Shown here: one piece after another, positions 7,401-64,000 of the stretch | Position numbering within the stretch: position 1 is the first letter of the stretch | Layout of the letters: each line of letters begins with the position of its first letter | Origin: Stegostoma tigrinum | Lineage: Eukaryota | Direction of reading: 5' to 3' | DNA length: 64,000 nucleotides | Assembly: GCF_030684315.1 (NCBI RefSeq) | Contig: NC_081379.1 | Span: forward strand, 42,468,381-42,532,380 | Notes under the pieces: model-generated | What the model was told of the DNA's origin: nothing | Seen by the model: the letters and a program-made list of their open reading frames with translations, nothing else | Database searches by the model: none | Position numbers and translations under genes: made by a program

Positions 7401-7953
7401 TTCCCGCAACGTTAAGCCAGCAAGTGCGAGGTGGTCTTGGGACCCCGGAACGGTTCCCGACTTCCGCCTGCAAAACTATCCCAATCTGCGACCTTTGGGC
7501 CTCGGAATGAGCCGGGCGGTTAATCGGGACACGCGAGGATTGGAAGAGGCTTGAAACTCGACTGAAAAATTAGTTTACGCTTAGCTACGAGCCATTGCTT
7601 GACTTGTATATGAGGGTGTCGGTTAGTTCGGTTGGCTGGATAGCTGCTCAACGCGGGTTCAAAGTTTAGATCGGTTGAAAGTCCCAGCTTTTAACTTATC
7701 CCCTCAGGCCTAAACTGCCCCACTTGTTTCTCTCGAACGTGTGAACCGTCCACTGGCACTGTTACTCTTTTAATGTAGAATTATGACTATCTTTGGAATG
7801 ACCTGAAAGCATAGTTTGTTTTAATAGCGGGAGAAACAGATTGATTCAGGGCAAAACAAAAACTTGTTGGAAATCGACAAAGCGAACATTGCATTTAAAT
7901 TAGGCATCTTAACAAGAAATTTTACTTAGAGGCGTTAAGAATAAGTCACTTAC

Positions 7954-8298
7954 CCGGCACAATCAGCTTGGTTCCGCTACCGAAGTAGCCCACGTTGCTT
8001 TCATCAGTTGAAAAACAGTAATAGTCACCAGCATCCTCCGATTGCACGTTAGTGATAGTCAAATATCCCACGTTGGTTGATTCATCTTCCAGGCCGGTAA
8101 ATCTGTCCGAGATGCCTTCACCTCTTTTATCGGTCCCCTTCAGAATAAATCTTGGGGCGCTGTCTCGCTTCTGCAGGTACCAGTGAACATACCTTTTTGA
8201 AAGGCTGATTCCGTGGACTGTACAGGTCAGGCGAACAGTTTCTCCAGGTGTAGTGGACTCGGAGGCTGGTTGGACCAAGCGGACGTCCGCGCTTGTGT
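7954..8298 (-). CDS. Ig light chain gene A, germline-joined V-J exon
   Basis: V-set domain DVRLVQP..LTC..W YLQK..DRFTG..LTITNVQSEDAGDYYC runs in frame into FGSGTKLIVPG with no RSS between V and J. Acceptor ttttacag; donor gtaagt at 7953. Confidence 0.95.
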
Positions 8299-17560: not shown

Positions 17561-19669
17561 AGTGATGGACCAGACCAAATCCCCTCAAAATATATTGACA
17601 AAAAAATCCAGACCTTAAATTTTTCTTATTTTAAATGCAACTGCCAAGCTTGGTGTTTGGATGCTATTTGGTTAGTCAAACTACCAGTTATGAAGAAAAC
17701 AACACTAATTCAAACACTATAACTGAAATACAGGGCAAAATAAAAATAAAATAATTGGCTTAACCATAACTCTATGAAAATGCTGAACAAATTAAAATGT
17801 ATATATATGTTAACTACCAGTAATTAAACGCTCCAATATAGTAATATCCCATAAACACACACATACCAAAGGCAAATTAGGTAAAATAGAGTGTCTCATA
17901 TGCAATTTTCCAGTCCAGCAGGAAAATCATGAATGAAAAGCTCTGAGAGACAGAGAGAGAAAAAGACAGACAGAGAGAGAGGGAGAGAGAGAGCAGCAGG
18001 GAGCGATGTAGTGCCACTTTCAAACCCAGCTTCAAGATCCCAGCAACTACTACTGAAGGCTAAAGCTTAAAGAAAAAAACATGGCTCTCTGGGAGCTTGA
18101 GGCACCATTTCAGGCTGCTTCTGTTGCAACTTAGAAAAAAATACCCAAGGCTTCACAAAGTTCAGTAAAAGGAGATGTGGCATACGTGAAAGGCAAGTAA
18201 CAGGATTTACACCTAGAGGCATGTAGCATAGCTGAGGCATTCACGTTTATTTACAAAAGCGGAAGATAATGGTTAAAGAGAAGAACATTTAGACCCTTAA
18301 AAGAGTTCAGAATCAATAAATAGGAGGAATTCGACAGGCAGAATGTTGTAAAGGTTGATTTTGCACTCGACCAGTAATGATACATCCAAGGATACTGAGG
18401 GAAATGGGAGGGGAAATTGTTAAAGTTCTTGTCATATCAGTCTCCCTTGGCAGCCAATGACTGAAGAATCAGAATTGGTCAAAAGGTTTTGTAAAAATAA
18501 GTCGAACATAGGCAATTCTTCACCCGCCTCTAGGTCTTGTGTTGTGTGGGTTACTCCCTGCACAGCAACTCTCATTTTCAACAATCTGCTTTTCTTGTAG
18601 CACCATTCTGAGCACTTAATGTGCTCTCAACTTATCTTTAGCTACATACTTGTTTGCCTGAACCCCTTATTCTGAGTGCGTGCACTCCATCCCCATGTAC
18701 TCAATTGTCAACCACACCAACCCCATCATTAGCATAAATGCTACGCTTTCTCCTTTACCTGTTCTCATGCATGAATCACAAAAGATTAGAGTGCATTCAC
18801 AGCGCATCATCAAGATAGATGATGAGATGCTATCCTTTTTTATGAGATGAGCTGGATACACAACTAAATGTAGAAGGTGCTGGATGACTGTAATGTGACT
18901 GGCAGCATCTGTTGACAAAAAACAGTGTTAATATTTAAGGTTAGAAGAAACCTTCGGCTGATGAAAGGTCAGTGGACTTGAAATGTTAACTCTGTTTTCT
19001 CACCACAGTTGCTGCTGGACCTGCAGTATTTCTCCAGCACTTTCTGTTCCCGTTTAAGATTTCCAGCATCCTCAGCTCCCTGTGTTTGTTTTTTTGCCTG
19101 GCCCTGGTTTCTCTTTGAGACTGCGGTGGTGAACTGCATTCTTTTTAACAGCTGGCTTCCATGTGACATTGTGATAGACCCTCGATGAAGTTTCATCATT
19201 TTTGATCCAGACATGTTGGAGAAGCAGCAGTATATTTATCAGTCAGGATGGTGAGTGACTTGGGAAAGAAGCTGCAGGTGGCGCTGTTCCCACGTATCTG
19301 TTGTCCTTGTTTTTGTTATTTTGGTGGAAGTGCTCATGGGCTTGGAAAGTGCTGTCTAAGCAGCCATGGTGAATTTCTGCAGTGCATCTAGCAGATGCCA
19401 CACAGTGCTGCAACTGAGCATAGGTGGTAGAGGGAGAGGGTGTAGTGTCAATCATGTAGACATCCTTTGTCCTGCAAGGTGTCAAGTACATCATTGGAGC
19501 TGCACTCTTCCAGGCTAGTGGGGAGTATTCCATCACACTCCTACCTGATTCTTGTGGACAAGCTTTGGGGAGTCAGGGAGTGAGTTACTCACTTAGTACT
19601 CTTAGCTTCTAATCTGCTCTTGGACCCATAAGTTTATGCTATTATTTCAGTCTTGATCAATCTTCTTCA

Positions 19670-20580
19670 TATTTCAAAAATATACATTATTCATATTAAA
19701 ATATTTATATACACATATTGTCACTCCAGCCTTTTGACACTGTACAGTCTTTGTAATTGGGAACAAATAGATCTTGGATTGTGACATTTCCTGGGCCTCG
19801 GAATGTGCCAATCTGCACTACGCTATCGAGATCAACTTGTTGGAAAACCAAAACGTTTTGGTCAGGCAAAAGAGCATCGTTCACTGAATTGATGGTTTTC
19901 CAGGTTGTCAATCAATGGTTGTCTCGATATGCTTCCTGAAGATAGCCCATAAAGCACAGAGTCCTTCATGACAGAGCTGTTCAGGATGAACCTCAATAAA
20001 AATCATTGCATCTCTCTCAATATCTTCTTTGCACGTAAATATTCTAGTGGGAGACGCAGGACAGTCTGTACCCACACCTTCCACGCAGCAGCTTCATAGG
20101 CAGCGAGCAGTGTCACAGAGAGAACGGGTATACTTGAGAGATCGAACAAGTAGTGCCCTTCTCAATGCCAGCCAAGTGATGTCTTGGTGCTGACTGGAAA
20201 GTTCTGGTGATGACGCCAAATAACTTTAACAGCCTGCTCAGGAAATCACCCAAAATGATCCACTGCCTCCTTTTCCAAGATGGTCTCAAGGCCGTCACGT
20301 GCTGACCGCTTCCTGACGGATTTGTGGTCAAGGGTGCTTTTCTTTGCAAATTTCTCCAGGAAGGTCGGGTGAAACCGAATCGTGCAAATACTTGGAGCGT
20401 TCCACAGTGAAGAGGCCTTGCCCATCCTTCGTAACACCAGGGACAGGTAGAACCTTAGTATATTGCGACACCTAGTGTTTGCCTACCGAGGGTTTATGTA
20501 CTGGGTGATACAACCACAAACAAACGTGGCCATTAGGATGAAGGGGAGCATCGGGTACATTCTTTACCCCCTTTTCTAGA
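19670..20580 (-). mobile_element. Tx1-like LINE 3' fragment
   Basis: Minus-strand peptide WKTINSVNDALLPDQNVLVFQ resembles the Tx1/L1 ORF2 C-terminus. An A/T-rich tail lies near 19670-19710. Confidence 0.5.
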
Positions 20581-20699
20581 GAGACGTGCATTGAAACCTA
20601 GAAGATGCACAGTTTTTCTAAAATTTACTGAAATGCAAACATCTGATGGGCAGTTTGAAAGCAACAACCGGAAACTGAATTCGAATAGTTATGCTCTAA

Positions 20700-23600
20700 G
20701 GCAGCCACAGCGTTCTTGCGGAGCAGTGATGGTATCCCCAGGTCTCAGTCAGGAGGCCTGGATTCGAGTTCCACATGGTCCAAAGGTGCGTAATATCACA
20801 TCTGGACGTGCAGATGACAATTTATCGAAGGAGCCTCCTTCACTCTGTGTCTTACCTCACTGCACCACCAGAGGGCAATGTTGCACTACATACGCCTGTT
20901 CCACAGCGAATTGCTCCCCCTCAACAGAAATTTCGAGTCGGAATAGTTCGACCTTTAAACAAAGCACATTCCAATCAAAATATTAACATCTAAAGACATT
21001 TGCCTTCAAATTAACCGTAGTTATTCACACAGGACCTTAGATGTTTCATTCTTTTTAAATGCACGTTCCCCTGTTGCTTATAACAAAGTGTGGAGCTGGA
21101 TGAACACAGCAGGCCAAACAACATCTTAGGAGCGCGGAAGTCTTGGACCAGATACCGCCGCCTGTGTTACTCCCGTGTTCCCGTTCTCCCGTGCTCCTGT
21201 TCTCTCCCACGTTTGCTCACTCCATGTTTCGCTCTCTCCGGGTTCCTGCCAAGAAGGAACAGTGAATAGCTGGCAGTCCCATCTCACTGATATCAGTTGT
21301 TGCATATTTGTCTTTAAGAGCCTGACTAAAACAATCTTCGCACGCAGTAGTCTGACCATCAGAAAACTCGACAAACCACATTTAAGATAATCTGCGAAAA
21401 GTACAGATGTGGGAGGAAGCAAAATAAGGAGAGAGCTCTTTTTAAATTATCACACATATACTGCATACAGATGGTGAAGGAGCATTCAATAATAACTCAG
21501 AAAAGGCAATAGCCGCATTATCTTGTTTAGATTTAGATCTCTGCTACTGTTTTCTTTCTTTAGTTGGAACAGCTGATAAAACTAATTATTGTTAAATGAG
21601 CTGCACATATTTGCAGTCCACAGAACTCTCTGCAGACATGCCTGTTCAGGTCATCATAGATGGAATCTTTTGTTCTTTCTCTTTTCCACGTCTTTCAGTT
21701 GGTCTATGGAAATGTTACTTCTATCAGTTGTTCGTAGGCATGTGTATTCGGATGAATGAAGTATTGTGGGTCACAGAAATAGTATGATTTAGAAACAGTC
21801 ATTTCACATTCCACTGAGCCCATTCTGGACTCTATGGAAGAATGCAGATGGTCACATTCCCCCATCCTATCACCCTTTCTCCTGCAAATTTCTGTCTCGT
21901 TGGTGCGTAGCTAAATTCCTTTGAAGGAATTGACTGTCCCCACTCCCACGCCTCCAGTGGCGTGATGACTTGCCGATAAAACAACTCTTTTAATCGCAGC
22001 AGAGGTACCTAAAGTTGTATCCTCTACTGTTGGAGCCGTTAATTCATGGCAACAGTCTTCATTTGTTTACTTATGACAAATTATCAAATCTACCAAGTGA
22101 TTGGGCTTCTCAGCAGAAGCTTGTAAAGCGTGAGGCAGCGACATGAAACTCTGACAGTTCGGTCTCAAAGCATCCTGTTCAACCCGGTGATATTTCGCGG
22201 TTACTATCATGGGAATGTTTGTCAAAATAGAGAAATAGGAACGAGCTTACATTAGTATGGCGCCGACTACGACCTCGGGACATCTGGGCGCACTTCACAG
22301 TTGGTTCAGTGCGCCCTTTTTGTAAGGAAAGCCACCATAGCGACGGAGGTTCCAGATTCTCCCTGAGCAAGGCTCCACAAATACGGATGACCACTTAAGC
22401 TATCTCAAGCAATTTTGGGTGCGAGATGAATATTTGGTTTCCACTACAGGAATTTGAGCCCCCCCTCCCCCCCATTATGATACGACTGCACAATAGAGAT
22501 GTAGCTGGTTACAGGTGGACGCGTTTCTGTATCGCCGCAAGGTGTGATATTGCGATCCAAATCACGCTCCCAAATAATGTATTTTGAATATGGTAGGACA
22601 AGTGTTCTGACGGTTTACATGATAAATTACAGTGAAGCAGGACTGAGAGCACTGAGAGAAATTTCGTGGAGGCAGCTCGCTGATGCAGGGGTGATGAATT
22701 CCGGGCATAATAATAGCCATTTTCCAATAAGCTGCTCTCTCTAGTAATTGCTTCATCATATTTCCGCAAGAGAATGTATATCAGGTTCTAGCTGCAAGAT
22801 GTAGATTGAATTAACTAACTAAATGCGTGTACATTAACGAAATAAAGATCGTACACAGAGAAGATTGCTAAAAAAAATCTAGATGTATGTTGTCCTAGTT
22901 ACAGTGGACATAGTATTAGGGCTTCTCAACATGAGCCAGGAGACGCGTTAAGTTCCATCACACCCGTGTAATTTGAGTTCTTATGTTTTCTTCGTTAAGA
23001 TTTGCACTTTCTAGTGACTTGAATAATCCAAGAGCATCCGAAATACTTGGAATGTCGTAAATTCAGAAACAAAATCAGAAATTGCTGGTCGGGCAGCGTG
23101 TGTGGAGAGAAATCCGATTTAACGTTTCACCTCCAAGGGACCCTTCCTCAGAACTTTGACGGACTCTAAACGTTAACTCTGATTTATCTCCACAGATGCT
23201 GCCAGGCTTGCTGAGTACCCCCCCCCCCCCCCCCCCCACCACCACCAGCAACCATCTGTTCTGGTTCCTGATTTCCAGAATGCACAGTTCTCCTTATGCC
23301 GTGAATTCAAGTTCGGTCTACCTTCTCTCTAAACACAGCCTACTGCTTGCACCGGGTGCTAACGTAAATGATCCATACCAGGAACACTCAGGCACTGGTG
23401 ATCAAAACCAAGTTAACGTCTTAGGCCGACGCCCTTTCATCATTATTTTGGAATGATCGACAGCCTAAAAGTGTTCACGGCTTCTAGACCCTTCAATCGT
23501 CTTCAGTGACGAATGACGTGGGAACAATACTGCAGAGACAACAGCAAAAAAAGTTGTTAGATCTTATTATGAAATTTCCAGTGTCAGTTTCACCAAAGAC

Positions 23601-23980
23601 TCGGCTGTAAAGTTATCCAACACAGCTTGAGTTTCTGTATACTGTAATTTACAAATTCCACTTCTCTGCGGCGCCAGAAGTGTGGCACCAATCACATTAA
23701 TTCTCACCCATTCCCAGATTTTCCACTCGATTACTGTCGGCTCAATCCCGCCAATCGACCAGCGTCTCAATGGTGCCAGCAAGAAGCTATCTGTATTCCA
23801 CTTCCTTTTTCTTTGGCAACGTGCACCGTGCGTGCCAAGACATGCAATTGAGTGTTTGCACATGTGAAATAGTGAAACTTAAAGGATTCTCGAGAAAAAA
23901 AAATCACGCGTGGATCGACTTGATGTCCGCTCAAATGGCTTGCTAGGTGCAGTATGTCAAATATGCAGCAGAAAGACAGA
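20700..23980 (+). pseudogene. Exon-less relic of a duplicated gene-B-type lambda cluster
   Basis: Four colinear, same-strand homology blocks: 20700-21560 ~ 28180-29250; 21595-21775 ~ 30345-30525; 22080-22860 ~ 39625-40350 (gene B J-C intron); 22885-23980 ~ 53210-54030. Confidence 0.7.
20863..20878 (+). promoter_or_regulatory. CTCF-like motif
   Basis: CACCACCAGAGGGCAA matches the CTCF core CCACCAGRKGGC. Confidence 0.55.
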
Positions 23981-23984
23981 TCGT

Positions 23985-24680
23985 GGGGGCACAAAGGCGA
24001 TGCTTTGGGGCAGAAAGGGGATGTGAGATAGCTTTGGCATGTAGGGTTAAAGAAATTCCAAAGAGATTCTACAAGCTATATTCAGGAGAAAAGAAAATAG
24101 ATGACGGCAAAGTTGGGGTCGTTGCCTACATGGAATTTAGCATGGCCTTTGACGAAGTCCCGCATGTTAGATTGGCTAGTAAGTTTAGCTCACATGAAAT
24201 TCAGGGTGCGCTAGTCAATTGGATACAAAATTGACTTCACGGTAGGAGACACTAGTTGGTGGCAGAAGTTTATTATCAGACTGGAGACATGAGTTGGTGT
24301 GCCGCAATGCTCTGCTGGGTCCAGTGTTGTTTCTCATTCATATAAATAATTTGGATGAGCATATAGGTATCATGGTTAGCAAGTTTGTGGATGACACCAA
24401 AATTGTGGTATAGTGGACAGTGAAGAGGCTTATCGAAGAATGAAAGGGGATCTTGGGCTGCTGAGCAGTGGACCTTTAAGTTAGAAGGAGATTCAATTAA
24501 ATGAATGTGAAGTGTGGGATTCGGGTAAGACAAACCAGAGCAGGACTTACACCGTTAATGGCAGGTCCCTGGGCACAGTTGTCAAACAGAGAATACTAAG
24601 GGTGCTGGTACGTATTCTTTGAAAATGACGTTACGGGTAAATATGGTAGTGAAGAAGGCTTTTGGCATACTTGCCTTCAT
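23985..24680 (+). mobile_element. CR1 LINE RT fragment
   Basis: Peptide VAYMEFSMAFDEVPHVRLASK (DFSKAFDKVPH-like), followed by a decayed FADDTK region. Confidence 0.75.
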
Positions 24681-27590
24681 CATACTCCTCACTTGTGCCT
24701 GTGGATGTCGCAAAGGCTGTGGAGAGTCAGGAGATAAGTCACTTGCTGCAATATTCTTAGCTTCTGAACAGCTCTTGTACCTATTGTGTTTACATGTTGA
24801 GGTCCACTTTAGCTTCTCATCAATGGTAATCTCAAGGATGTTGATCGTAGTGATTCAGTAATGGTAATATCATTGAATGTGAAGATGCAATGATTATATT
24901 GTCTCTAATTGGATATAGTTATTGTTTGGCATTTGTGTGATGCAAAGCTCACTTGCTGTCTGTCAGCACAAGCCTGAATGTTATCCATATCTTGTCGCAT
25001 GTGAACATGGCCTCTTTCTGTAAAGATGAGTCATTATTGATGCTGAAAATTGTGCAACTCTCAGTGAGCTATTCCAGTTCTGACCTCAAGATGGAGGGAA
25101 GGCTGTCATGATGCAGCTGGAGATGGTTGGGCCTAGGGTACTACCCTGAGGAGATCCCCTAGAGATGTATTGGATCTGAGATGACTGGCCTCCAACAACA
25201 ATCACTTCAGTAAAGTCTTATCCACCTACACATAGGTATGCAGGCACTGCCCTGAAACTTCCTGCCCAGCTAGGAATTCAGTGTAAAGCTTTTGTAACTC
25301 CTTTTCTTGTCACACATCGGTATGCAGACAGTGTCTTAAGCTTCCTGACTGAATTAAAATTAGAATCAAACTGTTTCAAATAGGGTTAGGTGGTGGAAAT
25401 TTGTAAAGGTGTGAAACCTCTAAAGCATGTAACTTCAGTCGTTGGCAAAGGGGCCAGGGCACTGACTTTGTTCTAGCCAGACACACTGGCAACTTGAAAT
25501 CAGAATCTGTCCAGGACAACACGTCGAAATCGCCTCCTGCCATTAGCAGCTAATTCACTAGCAATCGATACTATATCCTGGTCTTTTATGTTGTTGATGT
25601 AATAATTGCTTGGTATCCTGTTTTTGTCTTGTTGTAGTAATTGTTTTATGTATCATGTCATTGTAAATTGTGAAATCGTTTTATGTATCATGTCTTTTGT
25701 AAAGTATAAAAAGCGGGGACTGTCCGCTGCTCGGAGAGAATTACTTGCGAGACTCTGCACTCTGTGCCGGGTTGAGTACAGTTATTCTCCACAGCTTGTA
25801 CTTGCTTGGTAATAAAGGATTTGTGTTTTTCTAAACAGATCAGTGTCTTGTTATTGCAGCAAGTCCGTGAGGGTCTCCGAAAACGAACTTGACACCTGTA
25901 TATCAGATATGACTGCAGCCAGCGTAGAGTTTGCCCCCTCATATCCATTGACTCAAGTTTTGCTAGAGGTCCTTGATGCCACACACTGACAAATGTGGCC
26001 TTGACATCAAATGCTGTCACTCTCATCTCAGTTCAACTTTGGAATTCAGCTGTTTTGTCCACATTTAAAGTAAGGCTGCAATGAGGCCCAAAGCTGAGTG
26101 GCCATGGTGGAACCAAACTGTGCGCCACTAACCGATTATTGCTGAGCTGCTGCTGCTTGATAGCACTATTGATCACACCTTCCAACACTTTATCACTGAT
26201 CAATAGTAGACTGACGGAACAGTAATTGGCCAGGTTGGATTTATCCTTTTTTGTGTCTAGTACATATTTGGGCCATTTTCCATGAATGAGGAGATGCCAG
26301 TGTTGTAACTGTACTGGAAGAACTTAGCTAGGGGATTTGCAAGTGCTGGGGAACAGGTATTGTGTACTTTGCTGGAATGTTGCCAGTTCCCATAACTTTC
26401 GACGTATCCGATACCTCCAACCATTTCTTCATATGATGTCAAGTGAATGAACTTGGCTGAAGATTGGTGTCAGTGATGCTGTGAACCATTGGAGGGGGAA
26501 ACGATGCATCATCCATCCTGCACTTCTGGCTGAAAATTACTGAGTGCTTCAGCCTTATCTTTTGCACTGATGTGTTGACTATGGGGATATTTGTGGAACC
26601 TCCTGTTCGAGTTGTTCAACTGTCCACCACCATTCATGACTGGATACGACAGAACTGCAGAGCTTAAATCTAATCAGTTGGCTAACGTAGTTCTGTCTAT
26701 CTCTTGCGGCTTATGCTGGTTGGCAAGCAAATAGTCCTGTCTGGCAGGTTCGCCAGATTGACACCTCATTACTAGTGATGTCCCTGGCATGCCTTCTTGC
26801 ATTCTACATTAAACCAGAGTTGATTCCCTGGCGTGAGGTAATGGTTGAGTGGGGGATATACTGGATCATGAGGGTGCAAATTGCTCTCGATGCTGTTGAT
26901 GGCCCACAGCATCTGATGGACGCCCCGTCTTGAGTTGCTAGGTTTGTTCGAAGCCTGTCCCATTTAACCCAGCGATAATGCCACGCAACATGATGGAGGG
27001 TATTCTCAATGTGAAGACGGGACTGTGTGGTGGTAACTCTTACCGTCACTGTCATGCACAGATGCATCTGCAGCCAGCAGATGGGTAAGATTGAGGTCAA
27101 GTATGATTTTCCCTTTTGTCACCACCTGTTACAGACACAGTCTAGCAGTTGTGTGCTTTAGCAATCGAACAGCTCGATCAGTAGTGGGGCTACCTCGCCA
27201 TTGTTGGTCTTAGGCTTTGAAATCCTCCACCTAGAGCACATTGTGCGCCCTTGCTATCCTCAGTGATTCCTCAAAGCGTTATTCAACATAGAGGAATGCT
27301 GATTCGTCAGAGGAGAGAAGCTGGTACGAACTAATCGCAGAAGGTTTCCTGAAGCCATAACAATATTTAGAGACTGGATGCTGAGGACTCCCACGGAAAT
27401 TCCTTCATTCCTGTATACCCCTGAGTCTGTCCTGCCGGTAGTATTGTGGTGCCTCCCAAATTCAGCATGAGCCCCTGAGATATTCATGAGGAGGACTTTG
27501 CAGAGACAATGAGGCTGTTTTACCATTGCCTTTTTCGGTGCATAGGTCGATGCAGGTGGTCGGTTCAATATCATCTCTTTCCTGAGACGT
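24680..27590 (-). mobile_element. Degenerate CR1/L2-group LINE interrupted by a solo LTR
   Basis: RT peptide VTAFDVKATFVSVWHQGPLAKLESM. Homologous to 57560-59915 and to 19230-19650. Confidence 0.75.
25211..25894 (+). mobile_element. Solo LTR, 5'-truncated
   Basis: Contains TATAAAA and AATAAA and ends ...ttgaCA. Highly similar to the inverted copy at 56738-57518. Confidence 0.8.
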
Positions 27591-28321
27591 CGTAGTGCTT
27601 GATGCTGTCGAGAAGCTTGCTAGGCCATTTCAGAGGGCAATTAAGGGACAACAACGTGGCTACGTGTCTCGAGAGGCATGTAGGCGAGAATGGCAAGTTC
27701 CCTTCCCTGAAGGGCTGTAATAAGCTAGATGTGTATTTCCGACAAGTGACAATGAGTTCACAGTCATCAGTAGATTTTTAAAATACCAGACATATTTATT
27801 AATTTCAAATTCCACCATTTCCAAACCCTGGTCCCAGAACAATATCTGAGTCTCCGAATTAATAGTCTCACGATAATAGCACTAAACGATCGCATCTCTT
27901 ATGTCAGAAAGTTGCTCCAGCTGTTGTTACCTCCAGTTGGTAGAAGGATGCCAGAAAATATTCGACAGTGCATAATTGACCTATGTTTATTAATTAATGG
28001 AATATATCTGAATAGTGGATGCGAGAATCACTCACATGCAACTTATCCACTGGCCAAATAGGAGTTTGGATATCAAGATATTGTTATCATTTAAGTTCAC
28101 TGTTAGCAAAAATCTGATGGACAATTTCACTGGGCGACTTTGGGCCACGTAATTCGAACGGGTTCGTTCTAGGATGGCCGTAAGGTCTGGTGGTCGTGTC
28201 TTCCGAGTCAGGAGGCTTAGATTCAAGCTCCACCTGCTCCAGAGGAGTGTAGGAACATCTCTGAACAGCTCGATGAGAAAATATTGGAGGAGGAAATTTC
28301 ATCCTGTGTTATACATGAGCG

Positions 28322-28337
28322 TACCACCAGATGGCAA
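28322..28337 (+). promoter_or_regulatory. CTCF-like motif about 8 kb upstream of gene B
   Basis: TACCACCAGATGGCAA; paralogous to the site at 20863. Confidence 0.55.
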
Positions 28338-29946
28338 TACTGCACCACATATACTGCCCCGCAGCAACGTCAACCACCTCTCGGGAAATATTTGTAGTCG
28401 AAACGTTCGGCGATTAAATAAAGCCCATTTTAAACAAAATATTTGCAACTAAATAAATTTGTCACTAAATTCACCATAATTGTTTGCACAAGTCTTCAGA
28501 TACTTCAGCTTGAAGTGCGCGCGCCGTTTGCTTATTTGATGTAAATTCCCAAGGGGACAATTTATTGCATTGGGTGCGCTCAAAGATCTTCCGTCCGGTC
28601 CTCCACTCTCGTCCAGCCTTACGACCGCGCCCTATTCGGAACGAATGAGGTCAGCCTGCGCGTCTGCACACTCTCACCTCCCCCCTTGCTTTGCTCCTTA
28701 ACCTGCTACGACAGCAATTTCTTTCTCCGCGTGTTCCCGTTTCCTCATGCCCCTGTTTTCTCCATGTTTCGCTCTCTCTAGGTTCTTGTCAAGGAAGGCA
28801 GGCAGTCCCGTCTCACTGGCATCAACAGTCGAACACCTGTCTTTTTAAAAGTTTTGCTAAAACAATATTAGTAAGCAGTACTCTGAACATCATATAGGTC
28901 AGTGATTAGTAATTTGTTTGGGAAAAGGTCTTCCAGTGGAAAATACACTGGACGTGAGAAACTGAGACTGTTCTCCCTAAAGCAGAGCAGGTGAGAGCAG
29001 ATTTCATCGACGTGTTGTTGGAAGAGTTTCACAGAGCAACGGGGGGAAAACTGATTCCATTGCGCGAAAATTCGACAGCCCCAGATTAAAGGCAATTTGC
29101 GAAAAGAAAGTGCAGAGCAAGTGGGAGGAGTTAAATATGGAGAGACAGTTTTTATGATTGGAAAGGCATTGACTGACATATGGTGAAGGAGCGTTGAATA
29201 AAAAGCTAGGAAAGATAATAGCAAAAGGGTTGAGCACTGGTAATATGTGAGGCAATAGATAAAGAGCTGGGTGCCTAGCTGGATAATTGCTTCATAGAGC
29301 CGCCAAAGGGGAGACGAGTTATTTGGGCTCACTGGATCCTCCCGCCCTAAATGGTTAAAAGTCCCTATCAGACATTATCTTCTCAATTGTCGAACATTTC
29401 AGTGCACTATGTCATAGGGCGCAATTATACCACTATCCCTGTAAACAAAGAAATTTAATCTGACGTTTTCAAAAAGGGCACAATATCTTTGATGTTGGCA
29501 CCCATCAATTACGCAACCCTTGTTGATTCACTGTTGCCAGAAACTTAGATCTGCTGGTGTGTTTTATCAGCATAAGTCAGATAATGACACGTTTAGAATT
29601 CGATTAACCCTTGAGCAACATAGTTGCTCTTTCTACAGGTGGGGGCATTCAAAGGTTTTGAGAAGACAGGACACCGCGTGAATTAGCAGCATATTTTAAA
29701 CAGCACTCTGGAGCAATTATTCATTAAAGTTAACTCAGCATCCATTGTAAATTTTTGTCTACATCAGACTAAGTGAGGACACCTTTTTGACAGAACTCCA
29801 AGAAGAACTGTGAGAGACACAGTCAGAAAGGGAGGGAATTCTCAGTAGGGAATGGGACACAGACAACCAGTGGAAGAACTGTTGTCTCGAACCAGGCTAT
29901 GAACAATCATAAACAGGAACGCCATGAAATGATAAAAAAAGTGATT

Positions 29947-29982
29947 GGGTTAGGGTTAGGGTTAGGTTTAGGGTTAGGTTTA
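29947..29982 (+). repeat. Interstitial (TTAGGG)n-like tract
   Basis: gggttagggttagggttaggtttagggttaggttta. Confidence 0.8.
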
Positions 29983-31559
29983 CCACGTCAGAGAAACCAG
30001 TGTGCAAAATCCACCAGTTGGAGAAACCTCTGACCATTTAACTACAGAAGACATTGCAGCTGCTGACTTAATTTTTGCAAACCTTTCACCACAGAATTAA
30101 ATCTTTAAGGAAGTGACATATCTGTAGCATCACGGCTGGCCTGACGATCAGCTTTACAAGCAACCTCTTTGCTGTGTCTGTTGTTAACTGTTGCACCTGT
30201 ATTTTATTTACTAATCGAATTACCATTTAGAATTTGCGAACTAATTTTAAGTAACAGCTTGATCGTAAACTGATCATAAACTTGTTTAAGACTAATGCTT
30301 TGCTGCTGGTTATTTTCACATTGAAACATCAGAAACAATGCTACTAACGAACTGCACAAATTTGCAGTCCACAGAAAACTACAGACACGCCTGTTGTGGC
30401 CACTGTAGATGGGATCTGTGATTCTTGCACTCCTTCTTGCTGTCATCTGGACAATGTAATGCTCCTGCATCTAACTGTTCATGGATACAAGAATTGATGT
30501 GATAAAATATTATATAGTCACCTTAACAATATTGTTTAGAAACAGTCCACTTAAAATGCATCAAACACATTCACGCCCTGTAACGAGCAACTTAGCTGGA
30601 AATATTCCCCATACACTCCTCGTTGCTCTACAAACTTATTTCCGGCTGGTGCTTTATCTCTTGCCCCAAAGCCTGGGGTTTGGCTCTCGTCCTCTACCAC
30701 GAGCCAATGTCATAAATCTTTGTTTTTCTACTGACGTTAACTTTGCAACTGTACAGTGGACTCCCACCATATCACAAATCAATCATCTTTTTTCCATTGA
30801 CAAGAAAATCCAGCTCCAAGCTAAGATTACAGCTAAATTTCCTCACCTCAGGAATTAGACAATGAATCTCGTTTCCACCACTTATTGGAGTCTTTCTCCC
30901 ACCAAACGAGTGAGGAGCAGATTGGACATAACTCCTTTGTTGTGACCTAACCATAACTTTTCTAAAGCTTCTGAATAACCTTCCCGTTTTGACCTCGATA
31001 TTTCTATTTCTTAAACCCAATATTCCACCTTTTCATCTGGAGATGGGCAGCATGCGCTGGCCTTACCATCGACATCGACATCCTGTGCAATAATTAGGTA
31101 CATGTTTTTCTCCCTTTACCGTAGTACAATAAAAATGCGCAACCTCACACTGCTCTGTTTTGAATTCCACCTATCTTGTGTCTATCAATTCCGCTAGCTT
31201 ACATATGTTCAATTCCAGTCAGTTGGTATCAAGGTTGGTGTTTGACGCACCTCTAATTTTGCATTATCTGCAACATTTGAAACTTTACCATGTAATCTAA
31301 TGAACGAGTCACCTCCATGTATCAAACTGTCCCAGCACTGATATTTGGGGTCAATATTTCTCGAATCCACCAGGCTGAAAAAAAGACAACTTGCCATTTT
31401 GTGTCCTGAACACATTTTTATAATCCAACCTAACATTAGTCCACCTATAAAATGAACATCAATTTTGTAATCTGGCCGTTCATGAGATAGTTTGTTAAAG
31501 GCCATTTTTACATTTGTACAAACAACATTCACTGCATTCGCAAATGTCCCATATGACAA

Positions 31560-35400: not shown

Positions 35401-36081
35401 TTCCTAGGAAGGAGTTTAGAGGAGGTGCTAGTCTCAGAATAGGAATCTTGCATATTTGTTTCAACAATTTAATGTGGTGCTGTATTTACTTTGCAGTTCA
35501 TCGTAGCTAATGACCACCCTACAAAAGAATTGGTACATTTGACGCATTCCTCATTTTCTGCACTGCCTTCAATTTTTAAATCTCACTACTTCCTGTACCT
35601 TAAATATATATCTCAGACTAATTCATGGAACCTCTTGCTAAAAGCTCAATTTCATTGTCTGAACTGTTCCCATAACAAGCAACTCATTAAGACTTCTCAA
35701 GACTTCAGCATTTTGGCAATTCACTTACTTGCCATGGCAGAATAATATTTATCGATTCTCTGTCCTTTATCTATTCATCTATCTATCTATCTATCTGTCC
35801 GTACCTATCATTCCGAAAGGACAGTGCTCAATCTCATCTACTTCTCGCTATCGACAAATTCAATGTAAACTCACAACTAATCATTCAGTTCAGACTCCAT
35901 GGGAACTCAAAAGCTATTAAACAAATTTACTACCCTCAGCTTCTTCCCTCTGTGCTAATTTTCACAACTCAGTTATCCAAAACTCGCTCGTTTAATCTGT
36001 TTACTTGTTTTGCGTTATTGCATTATTTATGTGCTGTATGGACTGCTCGTTGTTCTGTTTCTCTCTAAAATGGCTGACTCT

Positions 36082-36206
36082 ATGCAAATATAAATCGATG
36101 CAGTTTGCAGAATCCAATTATCGGCTTGCTGTACATGCAGATTTGCATGCGTGTTCAATATTCAGTAGTTTGCTGGGGCTGACACTTCTTAAGGAGAGAT
36201 TTAAAA
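36082..36206 (+). promoter_or_regulatory. Gene B promoter (octamer, CCAAT, octamer, TATA-like)
   Basis: ATGCAAAT 36082-36089, CCAAT 36114-36118, ATTTGCAT 36141-36148 (the canonical VL orientation), TTTAAAA 36200-36206. Confidence 0.8.
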
Positions 36207-36268
36207 GAGTCCAGAAACGCATTGTGTCAGGAATTATTTTCCTCCTGATTTTTACAAGAACCTTCACC

Positions 36269-36317
36269 ATGACTGATTGGGTTCGAGCACTCGCGGTTCT
36301 GCTGTTCTGTCTCCACA
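36269..36317 (+). CDS. Ig lambda (type II) light chain gene B, leader exon
   Basis: caccATG start; encodes MTDWVRALAVLLFCLH plus 1 nt; donor gtaagt at 36318; 135-nt intron. Confidence 0.92.
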
Positions 36318-36452
36318 GTAAGTACGGGTATTCATTCGCAGAACCGCTTATGTTTACATTATTCTCTTTGCGTCTTTGTTAAGCGGGGGGAACTGCAAAC
36401 AATATTCAAAGCTGCAAAATGTAACTTGTCGGTATGTTCACTATTTAACCAG

Positions 36453-36794
36453 GTGCCAATGGGGATGCTGTTCTGACTCAGCCAGGTTCCATCTCAACGT
36501 CCCCGGGGAAAACTGTGAAGATTACCTGTACCATGTCCGGAGGAAGCATCGGCAGCTACAGCACGAGCTGGTACTGGCAGAAACCCAGGAGTGCCCCGGT
36601 GTTGATTTGGGACGAGTACGATGAAACTGCTTCGGGAATTCCAGATCGATTTACAGGGTCTGTGGACTCATCGAATAACAAGATGCATTTAACCATCACC
36701 AACGTACAGCCGGAGGATGCCGCCGATTACTACTGCGCTGTAGCAAGTAGCGGAATAGCTACATTCGGGAAAGGAACCAAACTGAACCTGGGCG
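36453..36794 (+). CDS. Ig lambda (type II) light chain gene B, germline-joined V-J exon
   Basis: (S)ANGDAVLTQPGSISTSPGKTVKITCTMSGGSIGSYSTSWYWQKP..SVDSSNNKMHLTITNVQPEDAADYYCAVASSGIATFGKGTKLNLG carries the signature motifs of shark lambda/type II chains. Acceptor ccag; donor gtaagt at 36795. Confidence 0.95.
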
Positions 36795-37976
36795 GTAAGT
36801 AAATTGAGATGCACGATTACTGCGGAAGTCTCAAAAATTAGTTGAAAATTATTGGTTCGGTAGATTAAACGAGATAAAATCTGGCTTATTGTTCCTAAAT
36901 ATATATATATATAGTGAACCAGTGAATCTGCATTATATGATATGGAAGGATGGGTCAGGCAGAAATGCGAGATAACAAAGTGTAGAGCTGGATGAACACG
37001 GCAAGCTTAAGCAGCATCAGAGGTGCAGGAATGTTTCGGAACGTCAGCTTTCCTGCTCCTCTAGTGCTGCTTGGCCTCTGCGGTCTTCCGGCTCTACACC
37101 TTATTATCTCAGATTCTCCACCACCTGCAGTTCCGACTGATTCTCAGGCAGAGATGCGGTTATTTAAAGGTGTATGATCTGGGCTGTAAACAGGAAACCG
37201 GTCTAATCGTTTCCCAGGTTGTCCTGGCTTTATTTCGATCCAAGTGCGGCTGTTATCGTGCAGTGGTGGTGTCCCTAATGCTAGATTAGACGGCTCCATT
37301 TGATTCAGAGACGTCTTACAAGATAATTAAATAGGTTGATTAAAAATACCCAAAACGCTTTCGGAGAAAGTCAAGGTGAAGAAACTTTACCGTCACGTTC
37401 CACATTCTGCTGGAATTGTGCGGTCATTTTCAGAGATCGGGCAGCCGCTGGCCCGGGTCGATAAACATAATTTCATTTGGAGTGGGTTGGAAGGACAAGA
37501 CGTGATGTTTATTTACGCAGGAGGGGTTCTCACTGTAGTGCCTTATTTCTAAGAATTGAGCGAGCAGAACCAAGGTAGTCTTTAAAAGAGAAAGGAGGGG
37601 GAGAAGCTGCTGCTTCTGAGTACTGGAATTCTTTGGCCGCTGGGTTTTTCAGACTGACAAACCCTGGATTCCGATAGCCTCGTTCCTCTGGCTGAAATAT
37701 ACAGCTAAACGCTTCATTCCATTTCGATCTTGGGAGATTGAAGCCCCAGTCTCGGTTAAGGATAGATAGTCGGGCAACTTGCTGCAATTCAGCCTCGCAT
37801 CCAAACCCAGTGAAACAACCTCAATCTCATATTTCGCGATACTGAGTCGGAAAAGTCTTTCGAACATATTGTATATTCATTCAATTGGATTTTCCCGCTG
37901 TTTCTGTGATCACCGTAGGAACAGTACAAGTACATATTCGTTGTTGATATTTCATCTTCTGTTTTCGGCAACATGA

Positions 37977-38896
37977 TGAGGGGATTGAAGGATGGGTCAG
38001 CAAGTTTGCAGACGACACAAAGGTTGGAGGTGTCTTTGACAGTATAGAAGGCTGTTGTAGGCTGCAGCGGGACATTGACAGGATGCAGAGATGGGCTGAG
38101 AGGTGGCAGATGGAATTCAACCTGGATAAATGCGAGGTGATGCATTTTGGAAGGTCGAATTTGAAAGCTGAGTACAGGATTAAGGATAGGATTCTTGGCA
38201 GTGTGGAGGAACAGAGGGATCTTGGTGTGCAAATACATAGATCCCTTAAAATGGCCACAAAAGTGGACAGGGTTGTTAAGAAAGCATATGGTGTTTTGGC
38301 TTTCATTAACAGGGGGATTGAGTTTAAGAGTCGTGAGATCTTGTTGCAGCTCTATAAAACTTTGGTTAGACCGCACTTGGAATACTGCGTCCAGTTCTGG
38401 TCGCCCTATTATAGGAAAGATGTGGATGCTTTGGAGAGGGTTCAGAGGAGGTTTACCAGGATGCTGCCTGGACTGGAGGGCTTATCTTATGGAGAGGTTG
38501 ACTGAGCTCGGACTCTTTTCATTGGAGAAAAGGAGGAGGAGAGGGGACCTAATTGAGGTATACAAGATAATGAGAGGCATAGATAGAGTTGATAGCCAGA
38601 GACTATTTCCCAGGGCAGAAATGGCTAGCACGAGGGGTCATAGTTTTAAGCTGGTTGGCGGAAAGTATAGAGGGGATGTCAGAGGCGGATTCTTTACGCA
38701 GAGAGTTGTGAGAGCATGGAATGCGTTACCAGCAGCAGTTGTGGAAGCAAGGTCGTTGGGGACATTTAAGAGACTGCTGGACATGCATATGGTCACAGAA
38801 ATTTGAGAGTGCATACATGAGGATCAATGGTCGGCACAACATTGTGGGCTGAAGGGCCTGTTCTGTGCTGTACTGTTCTATGTTCTATGTTCTATG
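37977..38896 (+). mobile_element. Young 5'-truncated CR1 (HER1-like) LINE in the gene B J-C intron
   Basis: KFADDTK...MEFNLDKCEVMHFG...LVRPHLEYCVQFWSP...FFTQRVVRAWNALP with one frameshift. Ends in a (TTCTATG)n tail. Confidence 0.92.
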
Positions 38897-39044
38897 ACGT
38901 GAAATGCACCAAGTTGTGATAGGAAACAAAAAAATTCAGTCATATTTTCAACAGTTTCCTGAAAATAAAAGCGCCCAATTTTAAAAAGGCCACGGGAAGT
39001 TAGTTCGCGGTAAAACACTTGGACAATTATATAAAAAGAATTCA

Positions 39045-39272: not shown

Positions 39273-40359
39273 TAATACGAAGGCAAGCCCTGCTCCACGT
39301 ATCGGAGATTTCAGATATTCCATACGTATATTGTCATAATGTTCAAATAACTTCTAGCTGTTGCAAGGAGATCACACTTACAGCTGTTTGTGATACAGAA
39401 AGTCTCTGACCAAATTCAACTGCCAAGTTCCCAGACGGAACTTTAACAACGGCAAAGATTTGTTAAATTGACAAGGGGGCTGATCTGGGACGGCCAAAGC
39501 GCTCCGGAAGACCTGGTCCAAACATCACAATATCACAAAAAATATGAAGCAGGTCAATCTCTACTTTTAGAGATGAACAAAGAAATGACATTTCCACATT
39601 TTCTTCACCGCTTTTCATTAAGTGATCAAATGTACCGAGTGATTCGCGTTGTCAACTGAAGCGTGTAAAATTTGAGGCCGAGGCTGGGGACTCTGACAGT
39701 TCGGTGTCAGTACATTCAATCGCACTGGGCGACAGATCATGGTCGCTATCGTCGGAACCATTCTTCCTTTACTCTAGAATTTCGGAAACGTAAGACTTAA
39801 CGACATCTGAGTGCTGTGATTAAATGCGTCTTTTTTTGAGGAACTTGTTCCGCATTTAGCAAGGCTCCGCGCAGATATAGTTGGTTCCCAAACGAAGGTT
39901 ATTTATAGGGAAAATCCAACAGAGTTGCCACGCTGTAAATCAGAAACTAAAGCAGAAGTTGCTGGAAAAGCTCTCAGGTTGGGTCCCATTTGTGAAGAGA
40001 AATCGGGGCTGGGTCACCGGACCCGAAACGTTAACTCTTCGCAGATTTTGCCAGACCTGCTGATATTTCCCAGCAGCTTCTGTTTTTGCGGCTATTTATA
40101 GGTGGCGGTTTTCTGTGCAGTGAGAAAGTGTGATCCCAATAACGTTGACGCAAGAACAGTCTTCCGAAGGTTTGCACATTAAATTACAGGGAAGCGAGGA
40201 ACCATGTGGAGAATCTCTTGGAAGCGAGAAAAGCAGCAAAATGGGCTATACAGAAATGCATCTTTAAACGTTTTAAATGTTCCAGCTGTTTCATTTTTCG
40301 GTCAGCGTTAGTTTATTCCGAATTCTAGTTTGTTGCAACTTGTTGTTATTTGAATAGGG

Positions 40360-41210: not shown

Positions 41211-41533
41211 ATCCACGAGCGCCTTCACTTTTCCTCTTTCCACCTTCAACCGTTGAAATCACGGAAAAGAACAAGGCGACCCTGGTGTGTTTGGTGAGCG
41301 GTTTTAACCCGGGCGCCGTGGAGGTTCAGTGGACGGTAGACAGAAATGTCAGAGGGAACGGAGTTGAGACCAGTCGGGTCCAGCAGGAAACGGACAACAC
41401 CTTCAGTGTGAGCAGTTATCTGACTCTGACAGCCTCAGAGTGGAATTCACACGAGCTTTACTCCTGTGCGGTTAAACACGAGACTCTAACAAACCCACTT
41501 CAAAAAAGCATCACGAAATCTAGTTGTGTTTGA
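41211..41533 (+). CDS. Ig lambda light chain gene B, constant (CL) exon
   Basis: (D)PRAPSLFLFPPS..ATLVCLVSGFNPG..W..FSVSSYL..SHELYSCAVKH..KSSCV*. Acceptor tttttcag. The spliced CDS is 49+342+323=714 nt and open. Confidence 0.95.
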
Positions 41534-41706: not shown

Positions 41707-41712
41707 AATAAA
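41707..41712 (+). terminator. Polyadenylation signal of gene B
   Basis: AATAAA about 175 nt after the stop codon. Confidence 0.65.
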
Positions 41713-51300: not shown

Positions 51301-54300
51301 AATAGTGATATATGCTACAGTACCCGCCTCATTACCTCCTGCCAATAGAAAATTCCACACCCTCTCTATGAGAATCTGTTCCCACAGAAGCAACAAACTT
51401 TACGGGTTTCATTCCCTGAAGCACTGACATCAAAAATCGTGATGGTGGTGTCTGGGACATGCTACATATGGTACCATGAGAATACCGTGAGAAGATACCG
51501 TGTGAATGACAAGCATAGAATAACTTGGTAGACCCTTTAAGAAAGCAGTTGAGAGTCCTGATTGAATTTCAAGTCTTATGAAGGTGAATGTAACAATAGC
51601 AGATTGCCTTTCCTAAAGCACGTGAGTGAACTATACTGGCTGTTCCTGATAGTCGGCAGCGCAGTCTACTGAAGCCACGAGGCTATCACTGGTCTTCATT
51701 GATTGTCATGGAAATAATTTAGCCGATGCTTTCAATTCAAGGAGTAATTTTCAATTAGTCTTCGCATTTAACGGTATATCCACTTCTCAACATCAATTTC
51801 ACTTCCAAAATCAAAGGGTCCGAGGGACTCACTTAAGCTGCTCTATTGACGTTTTATTGTGATTTTTACGACTTAATTTGCACTTACTATGTTGGAATAT
51901 TACGCTAAAAGACTTGTTGTAACGAATTCAAGTTGTCCTTTCTTTACAAACGTCAATGAAACGGTTTTATTTCTGCATTCCCACCTGAGAATGAACGGCC
52001 TTTAGAATTGTATGAATTCGCTTTCAGATTCACCAGTTCCACCTGCCTTTCTGTCTTCTTCCAACTAAATTGCGGTGATTCTGGTCAGTTTTGGTGAATT
52101 GGTTTCATCTGGGCCACTCTGCAGATTGAACGAACTGCAGTTGGCAATGCTGCAGGAAATGACTCTGACCAGTCGGATTCAAGCAGAAACTGTCAACATC
52201 TTCAGTGAGAACAGTTTCTGAATCTGTCAGTCATGAAGTGGACATCAGGCGAGCCGTGACACAAGTTTCTTGCTCTTTTCTTATCTCCCCTCACGCCTGC
52301 TTTCAGCTCATCTGCTCCATGAGACCTCCCTTCAGTTCTCTTGATTATGTTTCAACTAAACGACTCTGTTCTCTGTATTGCCGTCAAGGTGAGCTGACTT
52401 GCCAAACAGTTCTCCTCAGAAGTTATCCCTCTTTCCTTTAAATCTGTTATTCTCAGGACAAAAAACAAAGTATTCTGGTGCGCTAACGTGCCATTTCCAG
52501 CCTCCATTTCTTTGTGAAATCTCATGAATCTATTGCTGTAATAAGCAACACTTTATTTTCACGGCTTCGCGGCAAAGTATAACAGGTATGAGAGTCGCTG
52601 AATGAGCTATTGCACCAGGTCACAGGGGTAAGTGAGGACCAATGAATTATATAAGCCGCACGGCCCATGTGGTCGCAGAAATTTCTGTCAACGATTTCCA
52701 TCAAAGTCCATTTCCAGACATCACCTAATTAGACGATAATGTGATTTCATAATTCGCATAGACCAGCCGATAATTGAAGTGTTTGGCTCCACCCATTTCT
52801 CCTCGACAACTTTCGTTCTGTATATTTCATATCCACTGCTGTTTATTGTGGCTCAAAGTTAACTGAAGGCAGATATTGTTCAACATTAGAATTATAACAC
52901 ATATAGGAGTCTTCAGCCGAAAACTGTCAAAGTAAGTTTGGTGTACTATCTTTACAATTCCAGGTTTGCCAAGACAGAGGAAGGACTGTCACTGCTAGCT
53001 GCAAGCTGTGCGATGAATTATAGGAATTGTTATCATAACCGCTTATATGAAGCTGCTCCCTCTTGTAGTTGCTTCGTCACAGTTTACAAGAGAATCTTGT
53101 ATCACGAGCGAGCCACAGGTTGAAAACTGAATTCTCTGGCTAAATACACACATATATACGAAATTATGACCACGCATATAGAACATGGCAAGCATTTATT
53201 CCAGAAGGAGCTTGTTCTCCTAGTTATCATGGATATAGTTATATACACAGTATGTGCCGGCGGAACGATCCATTCCATTGTACACACTGCAAGTTGAGTT
53301 CTCATCCTTTCTTGATTAAGTGTTGCTGTTTCTGGTTGCCTCTATGCTCAAAGGCCGAAATAATCCAACAGCATTTGAAATACTTGGAATGGTGTGAAGT
53401 AAAGTTCGTCTGAACACAATTCATTGTTTGCTCTGGGTGCTAATGTAATTGTCCACAATAAAGCCTATGCAAATCATAGAAATACACAGCTCAGGAAATG
53501 ACTATGCTGATCGAAACCAATGTAACTTTTCAGGTCGATGCCCTTTCATCATTATTTTGGAACGATCCGCATTAAGACAGTATTCATTGCTCGGACACTT
53601 CAATCGTCTTCAATGATGAGAAACATGGGATCATTACAGTTCAACAATGCAGCAAAGCCTCCAAAGACCCAGCTGTAAAGTCATCCAACACATTTTGAGT
53701 TTCTGCATGATGGAATTTCCAAATTCCACCTCTACACAGAGGTTATAATGAGACATTCTTCATATTAACTCCTTACACTCTTAAACTTTTGATTCCATCA
53801 CTGTCGGGACAGTCGAATACATCAATGCATGTCTCAATAATGCGACCAAAAAATTATCTGTATTCCACGTTTTCATCAGATGCAGTGTTCGCGCATGCGA
53901 GATATTGAAACTTAACAGGCAGTGGAGACAATTATCACGGCGCAAGTCGTGTCTCTACCTGACTTCCAGAAGATGTTCAAACAAATGGTTTGCAGGATGC
54001 ATTATATAAAATATGCAGTAGAGAAACATCATTTTGTTCAGCTAATTTCAATCAACCAGCCATGACGTAAACGACTGCAGATGGGACTTGAACCCTAACC
54101 TTCCGTCCTGCGCCACAACAGTGCAGCACATACTGAAAAATACTTAAGTGATTCAGGTAACTTCTGACCTGTTTCATGATGGTAGGAAGTGCCTCATCTT
54201 GTTTACATTATTTAACATTACTAACAAACTAACAGTACTGCCCTGTGCAAGACGGAAATTGCCCTGGATTAGCATTGTAGATGAGCACGAAACTACACAG

Positions 54301-57518: not shown

Positions 57519-57559
57519 TTTGGAGATGGACTGACCCACTTAAGTGAGACATATCCCAT

Positions 57560-59915: not shown

Positions 59916-59917
59916 AT

Positions 59918-60888
59918 GACACTTCCGCCATCTACAATCCGACCCCACCACCCAAGACATTTTTCCATCCCCACCCTTGTCTGCTTTCCGGAGAGACCAC
60001 TCTCGCTATGACCCCCTTGTCCTCTCCACACTGCCCTCCAACCCCACCACACCCGGCACCTTCCCCTGCAACTGCAGGAAGTGCTACACTTGCCCCCATA
60101 CCTCCTCCCGCATCCCCATCCCAGGCCCCAAGATGACTTTCCATATCAAGCAGATGTTCACCTGCACATCTGCCAATGTGGTGTACTGTATCCATTGTAC
60201 CCGGTGTGGCTTCCTCTACATTGGGGAAACCAAGCGGAGGCTTGAGGACCGCTTTGCAGAACACCTCCGCTCGTTTCGCAACAAACAACTGCACCTCCCA
60301 GTTGCGAACCATTTCAACTCCCCCTCCCATTCCTCAGATGACATGTCCATCATGCGCCTCCTGCAGTGCCACAATGATGCCACCTGAAGGTTGCAGGAAC
60401 AGCAACTCATATTCCGCTTGGGAACCCTGCAGCCCAATGGAATCAATGTGGACTTCACCAGCTTCAAAATCTCCCCTTCCCCCACTGCATCCCAAAACCA
60501 GCCCAGTTCATCCCCTCCCCCGACTGCATCCCAAAACCAGCCCAGCCTGTCTCTGCTTCCCTCACCTGTTCTTCCTCTCACCCATCCCTTCCTCCCACCT
60601 CAAGCTGCACCTCCATTTCCTACCTACCACCTCATCCCGCCTCCTTGACCTGTCTAACTTCCCTGGACTGACGTATCCCCTCCCTACCTCCCCACCTATA
60701 CTCTCCTCTCTACCGATCTTGTTTTCTCTCCATCTTCGGTCCGCTTCCCCCTCTCTCCCTATTTATTCCAGTTCCCTCTCCACATCCCCCTCTCTGATGA
60801 AAGGTCTAGGCCCGAAACATCAGCTTTTGTGCTCCTGAGATGCTGCTTGGCCTGCTGTGTTCATCCATTTCCACACTTTGTTTCTTGG
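59918..60888 (+). mobile_element. Penelope-like element 3' fragment abutting the ERV env
   Basis: ORF 59977..60387 contains VVYCIHCTRCGFLYIGETKRRL (GIY-YIG), followed by the 3' end. Confidence 0.9.
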
Positions 60889-63600: not shown

Positions 63601-64000
63601 TTAATGGGCCTACTGTAAACCTGTCAGATGTATGCGTGTGTGTAAGTGATGCAGTAGACTGCGACAGTTATGTCCTTGATATCTGAAGAATGGCCGCACA
63701 TACACAAGAGGAAGAAACAGGAATGTGGGGTTTAAACCACAATGAGATCAGCCATGATCTTAGTGAATGGCAGAGCACATTTGCAAGGCTGAACAGCCTA
63801 CTCCTGCTCGAAGTCCAAGGTTCACTACTGAGGAATAGCAGGGCGGGGAGGGGGTTATTTGGTGTCAGTGAAGGCCTGCAATACAATTACTGCCATTACA
63901 GAGCAGTACGGTATAAAGTAATCAAATTAACAGCTGACAAATCAGACAAAGACAGTAGAAATGCGACAGGAAGTAGTGGGGGTTCAGGATTGGCTGGCTT

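Follow-up and report, generated by a model that had tools for sequence, protein, structure and literature searches.

A 'ghost' light-chain cluster in a shark genome is an old paralogue of gene B whose longer form is present in other animals

The exonless 'ghost' between genes A and B is an old tandem paralogue of the gene B immunoglobulin light-chain (IgL) cluster, composed of the upstream flank, the middle of the intron and the 3' flank, and a longer form of the same locus is found in other samples of this species and in a related one. Both species inherited the long form; rather than an ancient fossil, the 'ghost' most likely reflects a deletion of very recent date or a mistake in the assembly. 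We favor, at a probability of roughly 0.5, the reading that the two missing pieces, which probably hold the joined V-J and C exons, were lost together from the assembled haplotype, in one recent deletion-island-deletion event with 2-base microhomologies. No new mechanism is needed, the known kinds being an Ig cluster paralogue and a complex deletion allele or false gene loss. The initial annotation of this DNA was largely right in its observation but wrong in its history, as the longer form still exists in other animals.

The window, that is, the whole stretch of 64,000 nucleotides analysed here (C34:42468381-42532380), belongs to a 3.2-Gb shark genome. Two light-chain clusters lie in it, with gene A read from the minus and gene B from the plus strand:

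7946-8290 (VJ) and 2271-2620 (C), minus strand: gene A
36030-36794, plus strand: gene B promoter, leader and VJ region
36082 and 36141, plus strand: gene B promoter octamers
36269-36317, plus strand: gene B leader exon
36453-36794, plus strand: gene B germline-joined VJ exon, open frame, GT/AG sites
41211-41533, plus strand: gene B C exon, C1-set, open frame; AATAAA at 41707

A single cluster makes up gene B: leader, joined VJ and C, the V-J frame being continuous and the splice sites canonical. The clusters are probably lambda, since their VJ is germline-joined, as is described for all shark lambda genes (PMC4279169), and since some of the solved structures among the V matches are of chains named lambda. 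In the 264 kb examined, three joined VJ exons have an open frame and are followed by a C exon. Gene B2, a close V paralogue, and two broken clusters lie within 70 kb downstream of gene B, while a second light-chain group is located 1.1 Mb away. B2 (L042, C34:42553893-42556563) shares 95% protein identity with gene B in V and 75% in C, and its introns and flanks are unalignable, which suggests recent gene conversion of the B2 V exon. The broken clusters (L043-L044; C34:42566534 and 42572257-42573923) comprise a stop-bearing V, with no adjacent C found, and a frameshifted V with a stop-bearing C. A LINE fragment in the gene B intron (37975-38916) has 96% identity, across 948 bases, with another that immediately precedes the B2 promoter (L042, window-equivalent 84205-85152), and a weak V-domain match (L053, E 3e-5; window-equivalent -33744 to -33391), about 34 kb before the window, falls outside the lambda-like V exons. 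At the other side, a retrovirus-like stretch (60890-64000) reaches the window end and includes an ORF (62466-62864) that is presumably integrase-like.

By self-comparison, 20621-23978 is colinear and on the same strand with four parts of the gene B unit, which confirms, at about 71% identity, the four blocks that the initial annotation had matched to that unit in order and orientation:

Block 1, plus strand: 20621/20747-21513 vs 28093/28206-29222 (self-comparison, nhmmer)
Block 2, plus strand: 21516-21906 (weakly to 22072) vs 30275-30652 (30732)
Block 3, plus strand: 22078-22673 vs 39620-40225
Block 4, plus strand: 22675-23978 vs 52994-54028

From these alignments, the ghost and its counterparts were delimited as follows:

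20621-22072, plus strand: upstream block U, paralogue of 28093-29222 and 30275-~30732, with a SINE fragment at 21080-21140
22073-22673, plus strand: retained island I, paralogue of the gene B J-C intron at 39620-40225
22674-23978, plus strand: 3' flank block F, paralogue of 52994-54028, with a SINE-like piece and C-run at 23040-23260
28093-30732, plus strand: gene B unit upstream block, which has 1 kb and 170 bp absent from the ghost
39620-40225, plus strand: gene B intron segment homologous to the island
52994-54028, plus strand: gene B unit 3' flank block, homologous to F

The nhmmer E-values of the ghost pieces against the gene B unit range from 1e-55 to 3e-4, and the identity over the 10 pieces measured is 70.7% (1524/2155 aligned columns). 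Each of six motifs cited previously has one occurrence in the ghost, one in the gene B unit and no other in the window. Short repeats are interspersed: the ghost contains SINE pieces at 21080-21140 and 23040-23220, and where block 2 begins, about 130 bp coincide with an old dispersed repeat. The two junctions lie at 22072 and 22673. The second had earlier been put at about 22860-22885; we place it at 22673, with 22676-22860 belonging to the 3' flank block by a score of 90 versus 20 for intron continuation (maximum of 32 among 300 shuffles). Profiles built from the local V and C copies revealed no V or C remnant in 19000-28150, the best match being 44 bp long with an E-value of 0.09, and Rfam gave 0 matches in 19000-31500. 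A 41-base motif of the upstream block (21604-21644), probably an old repeat remnant, is also present in a third, unrelated single-copy contig of this species, and a similar piece is present in the related species. The 1-kb part of the B upstream block that is missing from the ghost contains a short telomere-like repeat run at 29940-29983.

The gene B unit itself includes a feature absent from the initial annotation:

52022-52254, plus strand: decayed, frameshifted second C exon with splice acceptor (profile search, E 3.6e-15), 68-71% like gene B C

The divergence of this exon from gene B C is about that of the ghost from the B unit, and no V was found between the two C exons. Since the decayed exon precedes the 3' block, the second ghost gap spans two C copies of the B unit. 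The block that had been called the far 3' flank is homologous as claimed, but the flank lies 740 bp behind this second C exon. Likewise, the proposed duplication unit of about 26 kb is the present span of the B copy but is inflated: the long form of the ghost measures ~6.7 kb, and the length of the B copy therefore reflects later insertions and the extra C. An extension of the duplicated unit into a LINE (24678-27604 vs 57557-59918) was considered and rejected. The two LINE copies, of the same old family and in the same orientation after the 3' block, are 67.5% identical to each other and 71.0% and 67.0% identical to a dispersed copy, with quartet sites of 19:14:10, and a shared origin is unsupported.

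The blocks are specific to this locus. A genome-wide DNA search with three ghost blocks and the B-side 3' flank, in which the lack of a match does not prove rarity, returned the two local copies only, and the B-side upstream query gave 482 matches, which, among the matches listed, are the ghost, the telomere-like repeat and an old repeat at ~30020-30400 (with one at ~29450-29620). In the 264-kb neighbourhood, where true repeats match many times, the ghost blocks were found nowhere else besides short repeat pieces, and neither 120 kb of the second light-chain locus nor 40 other Ig loci contained them. No non-coding block of the ghost recurs in gene B2, in the broken clusters or at the second light-chain locus. 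Ordinary dispersed repeats, found independently of IgL loci, were the outcome named in advance as fatal to the ghost, and they can be rejected, short repeat pieces excepted.

As judged from sequence divergence, the duplication is old. The corrected divergence between the ghost and the B unit is 0.37, as compared to 0.074 between organism A (this species) and organism B (the related species), a ratio of 5. If organism B is the whale shark, whose split is put at about 50 million years or more (PMC10620051), the ghost duplication would be, roughly, 250 million years old. The kept blocks show no sign of constraint by between-species divergence, a test that short binding sites would escape: they differ by 7.0% (191/2721) and the flanking repeats by 7.5% (54/722; p 0.68, run X5 counts), and seven pieces compared between the species are homogeneous (p 0.57). 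The suggestion that the surviving pieces may be regulatory is not borne out, as they diverge at the same rate as nearby repeats.

We searched public sequencing runs for the longer form. Window words were present in four runs of organism A (89-97%) and nine of organism B (7-8%), the latter being ~7% diverged from the former. None of the runs listed was of RNA, which speaks neither for nor against expression. Contigs of six of the 13 runs (X1, X2, X4, X5, X7 and X13; three bisulfite runs were left out) were compared with the window, representing two samples of organism A (X1, X2) and three of organism B; ~92% of the X1 run and ~81% of the X13 run were read. Both junctions are interrupted by further DNA:

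22071-22072, junction 1: 2,426 further bases in X1 and X2; 2-base overlap TT
22672-22673, junction 2: 859 further bases in X1, X2, X4, X5 and X7; 2-base overlap GC in organism A

A 5383-base contig of X1 aligns to 21150-22072, 22071-22673 and 22672-23035 with 2,426 and 859 letters between these segments and has 0 other differences from the window at aligned bases. The contig of X2, a separate sample of the same species, is as in X1, with the same 2,426- and 859-base extras. Junction 1 is bridged in these two of the six runs; in X4, X5, X7 and X13, the contigs leave the window at 22072 into unlike DNA and re-enter at 22071-22076, and after a 30-base overlap the halves sum to 2,426 bases in X4 and ~2,424 in X5. 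Junction 2 is bridged with 859 letters in five of the six runs, the X13 contig continuing into unlike DNA. Thus, the long form or an unlike continuation stands at the ghost junctions in 6/6 runs. The short form crosses neither junction in any of 20 aligned contig records from four runs, nor was it found in X2 and X7 among the matches listed, contigs being of a kind that drops rare variants. On the long-form contig, which is unbroken, X1 has a depth of 19.8, versus 19.4 and 21 on other single-copy contigs, and it looks homozygous for the long form.

These results indicate that the long form is ancestral, because organism B also carries extra DNA at both ghost junctions in all three samples. Within these data, the assembled sequence alone has the short form. 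The presence of the long form in the same and in a related species means that the loss is younger than the variation within the species, or is non-biological. An old copy that died long ago by two separate deletions, as had been proposed, is contradicted by the 2,426 and 859 bases still found in two same-species samples, and the comparison with a related shark that the same proposal had called for argues against an ancient fixed deletion.

The missing pieces, known from their length and 30-base ends, fit the place of the gene B exons. The limits of homology to gene B, mapped independently of the contigs (end at 22673, restart at 22675, start at 22078), fall within 6 bases of the contig breakpoints, and this agreement puts the missing DNA where the B unit has its promoter-leader-VJ region and its intron end plus C. 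From promoter to J, 765 bases are needed and 2,428 are available, and for the intron end and C without the LINE, 728 are needed and 861 are available. At the expected B-unit places, the 30-base ends match weakly, ranking 43 to 332 among 1067 windows. For the larger piece, both visible ends gave 0 matches in the assembly, the left end even with 3 mismatches allowed, so this piece is neither misplaced nor a young repeat. About 550 bases ahead of the island, the contigs of four runs, from both species, are interrupted, which hints weakly at a word common to another locus. On position and size, we think it highly probable that the missing pieces hold recognisable joined V-J and C exons. The larger would likely carry promoter, leader and joined VJ, the smaller the intron end and a C exon; the hidden gene may quite possibly be intact. 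In this respect, the earlier claim that the gaps remove promoter-leader-VJ and C agrees in place and size, but the VJ and C content is what we infer.

Metagenome contigs contained 0 matches to the missing DNA and no relative of gene B C. A protein search for the locus gave two matches among three candidates, neither of them with locus context; identity to the local C exons is at most 52-79%. These two, P0001 and P0002, are labelled as bacterial hypothetical proteins on contigs of 410-652 bases and have 75-79% identity to shark light-chain C exons; they are likely host contamination.

In the event that we favor, a break or stalled fork after 22072 would have resumed 2.4 kb downstream, the 600-base intron island would then have been copied, and a second jump of 0.86 kb would have followed after the island, template switching or microhomology end-joining leaving a null allele. 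A single event of this kind would explain both cuts. The junctions, which the initial annotation proposed to inspect for microhomology, do have it, with overlaps of TT (junction 1) and GC (junction 2) flanking an island of ~600 bases; overlaps of 2 or more bases are expected by chance at 16% of random junctions and are therefore weak support. The short junctions were not seen in the contigs of the two organism A samples.

A close rival, possible though somewhat less probable in our estimate, is an artefact of assembly or handling: the animal would be long-form, and the pieces would have been dropped in assembly, polishing or curation, or the short form would come from a rare somatic or chimeric long read. 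The short junctions occur in none of the contigs among the matches listed in the six runs, and X1, which looks homozygous long, is base-identical to the window elsewhere, as an artefact predicts if X1 is the assembled animal or a parent. Missing sequence is, moreover, a prevalent error type at the Ig loci of long-read assemblies in the CloseRead analysis (PMC12090573), which makes no mention of sharks. However, the errors described in that source are missing haplotypes and coverage breaks, unlike a pair of clean cuts that lie 600 bases apart in single-copy DNA without an N gap; such cuts would be, in our judgement, an unusual error. There is also no other large discrepancy between the window and the organism A contigs in 19750-24650 among the matches listed, and the organism A evidence comes from two samples. 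If X1 were the assembled animal or its parent, an artefact would be more likely than a deletion.

It is improbable that the extra DNA is non-Ig filler, consisting of old insertions or non-coding remainder, with the exons lost long ago and the filler removed by a recent event. The homology of the 30-base loose ends to the B unit is weak, and the extra DNA is known by length and ends. Since the X1 and X2 contigs are unbroken, a long exact word common to the extra DNA and to V or C of gene B or B2 is improbable, and the duplication is old (5x the divergence of organisms A and B), with another decayed C nearby. In contrast, block homology switches exactly at the breakpoints, which would be unexpected for unrelated insertions, the sizes fit VJ and C, and the left end is without a copy elsewhere at 3 mismatches.

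Programmed somatic deletions exist, for example, at the mammalian kappa-deleting element. By analogy, an intact extra lambda gene, kept in two species, could be silenced in B cells through two programmed deletions that take out V-J and C and spare the intron core, the assembly having captured the somatic allele of a lymphocyte. If true, this would be a way to exclude germline-joined light chains, which lie beyond control by V-J rearrangement, and both putative exon-bearing parts are indeed gone. We nevertheless consider it very improbable. An assembly normally reports the majority allele, and a cryptic RSS, for which the initial annotation had also proposed to inspect the junctions, did not appear: there is no heptamer at junction 1 (kept and visible deleted ends) or at the kept ends of junction 2, and the only heptamer-like word, near junction 2, is ~23 bases inside the kept island.

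Least credible of all is an ancient pseudogene with every exon lost by two separate old deletions and possibly regulatory remnants, or a set of dispersed repeats: the window alone shows exactly such a picture, but the long form is in both species, the deleted junctions are shared with no other individual or related species in 6/6 runs, the blocks lack excess conservation, and there are two local copies only, short repeat pieces excepted.

Between genes A and B there is probably one more light-chain cluster than the reference shows, which would make gene counts incorrect here and mislead read mapping. A real short allele would mean that this species, in which pre-joined antibody genes are few, has one of them as a presence/absence variant, and would capture the loss of a cluster while it is under way. 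More generally, what looks convincingly like an 'ancient ghost' in a single assembly may turn out to be a deletion that is private or false. Our literature search, with subscription journals and supplements outside it, found no report on the ghost locus or allele.

Three known systems are close to this locus. The first is the lambda (type II / NS3) clusters of cartilaginous fish, which have one V, J and C each and are germline-joined (PMC4279169; PMC2193156). Gene B is the same in its leader, joined VJ, C, octamer promoter and lambda-like V, and the ghost is a tandem paralogue of it in a region with other clusters, some intact and some broken; unlike the clusters described for cartilaginous fish, the ghost is exonless in the window, its long-form exons being predicted ones. 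The second is the set of CloseRead cases (PMC12090573), which resemble the ghost in that the assembly of an Ig locus is without DNA that is present in reads of the species, whereas those given there involve N gaps or the absence of large haplotype segments instead of two small clean cuts in single-copy DNA. The third is a human LAMA2 DEL-NML-DEL allele (patient P22), reported with 2-base microhomologies and an island of ~300 bases (PMC6177444), one of a class of complex alleles attributed to FoSTeS/MMBIR or end-joining. The ghost has no templated insertion, unlike P22, and its short allele may not exist in DNA. What the two share is a short island, retained in the same orientation between two deletions, and a 2-base overlap at each junction.
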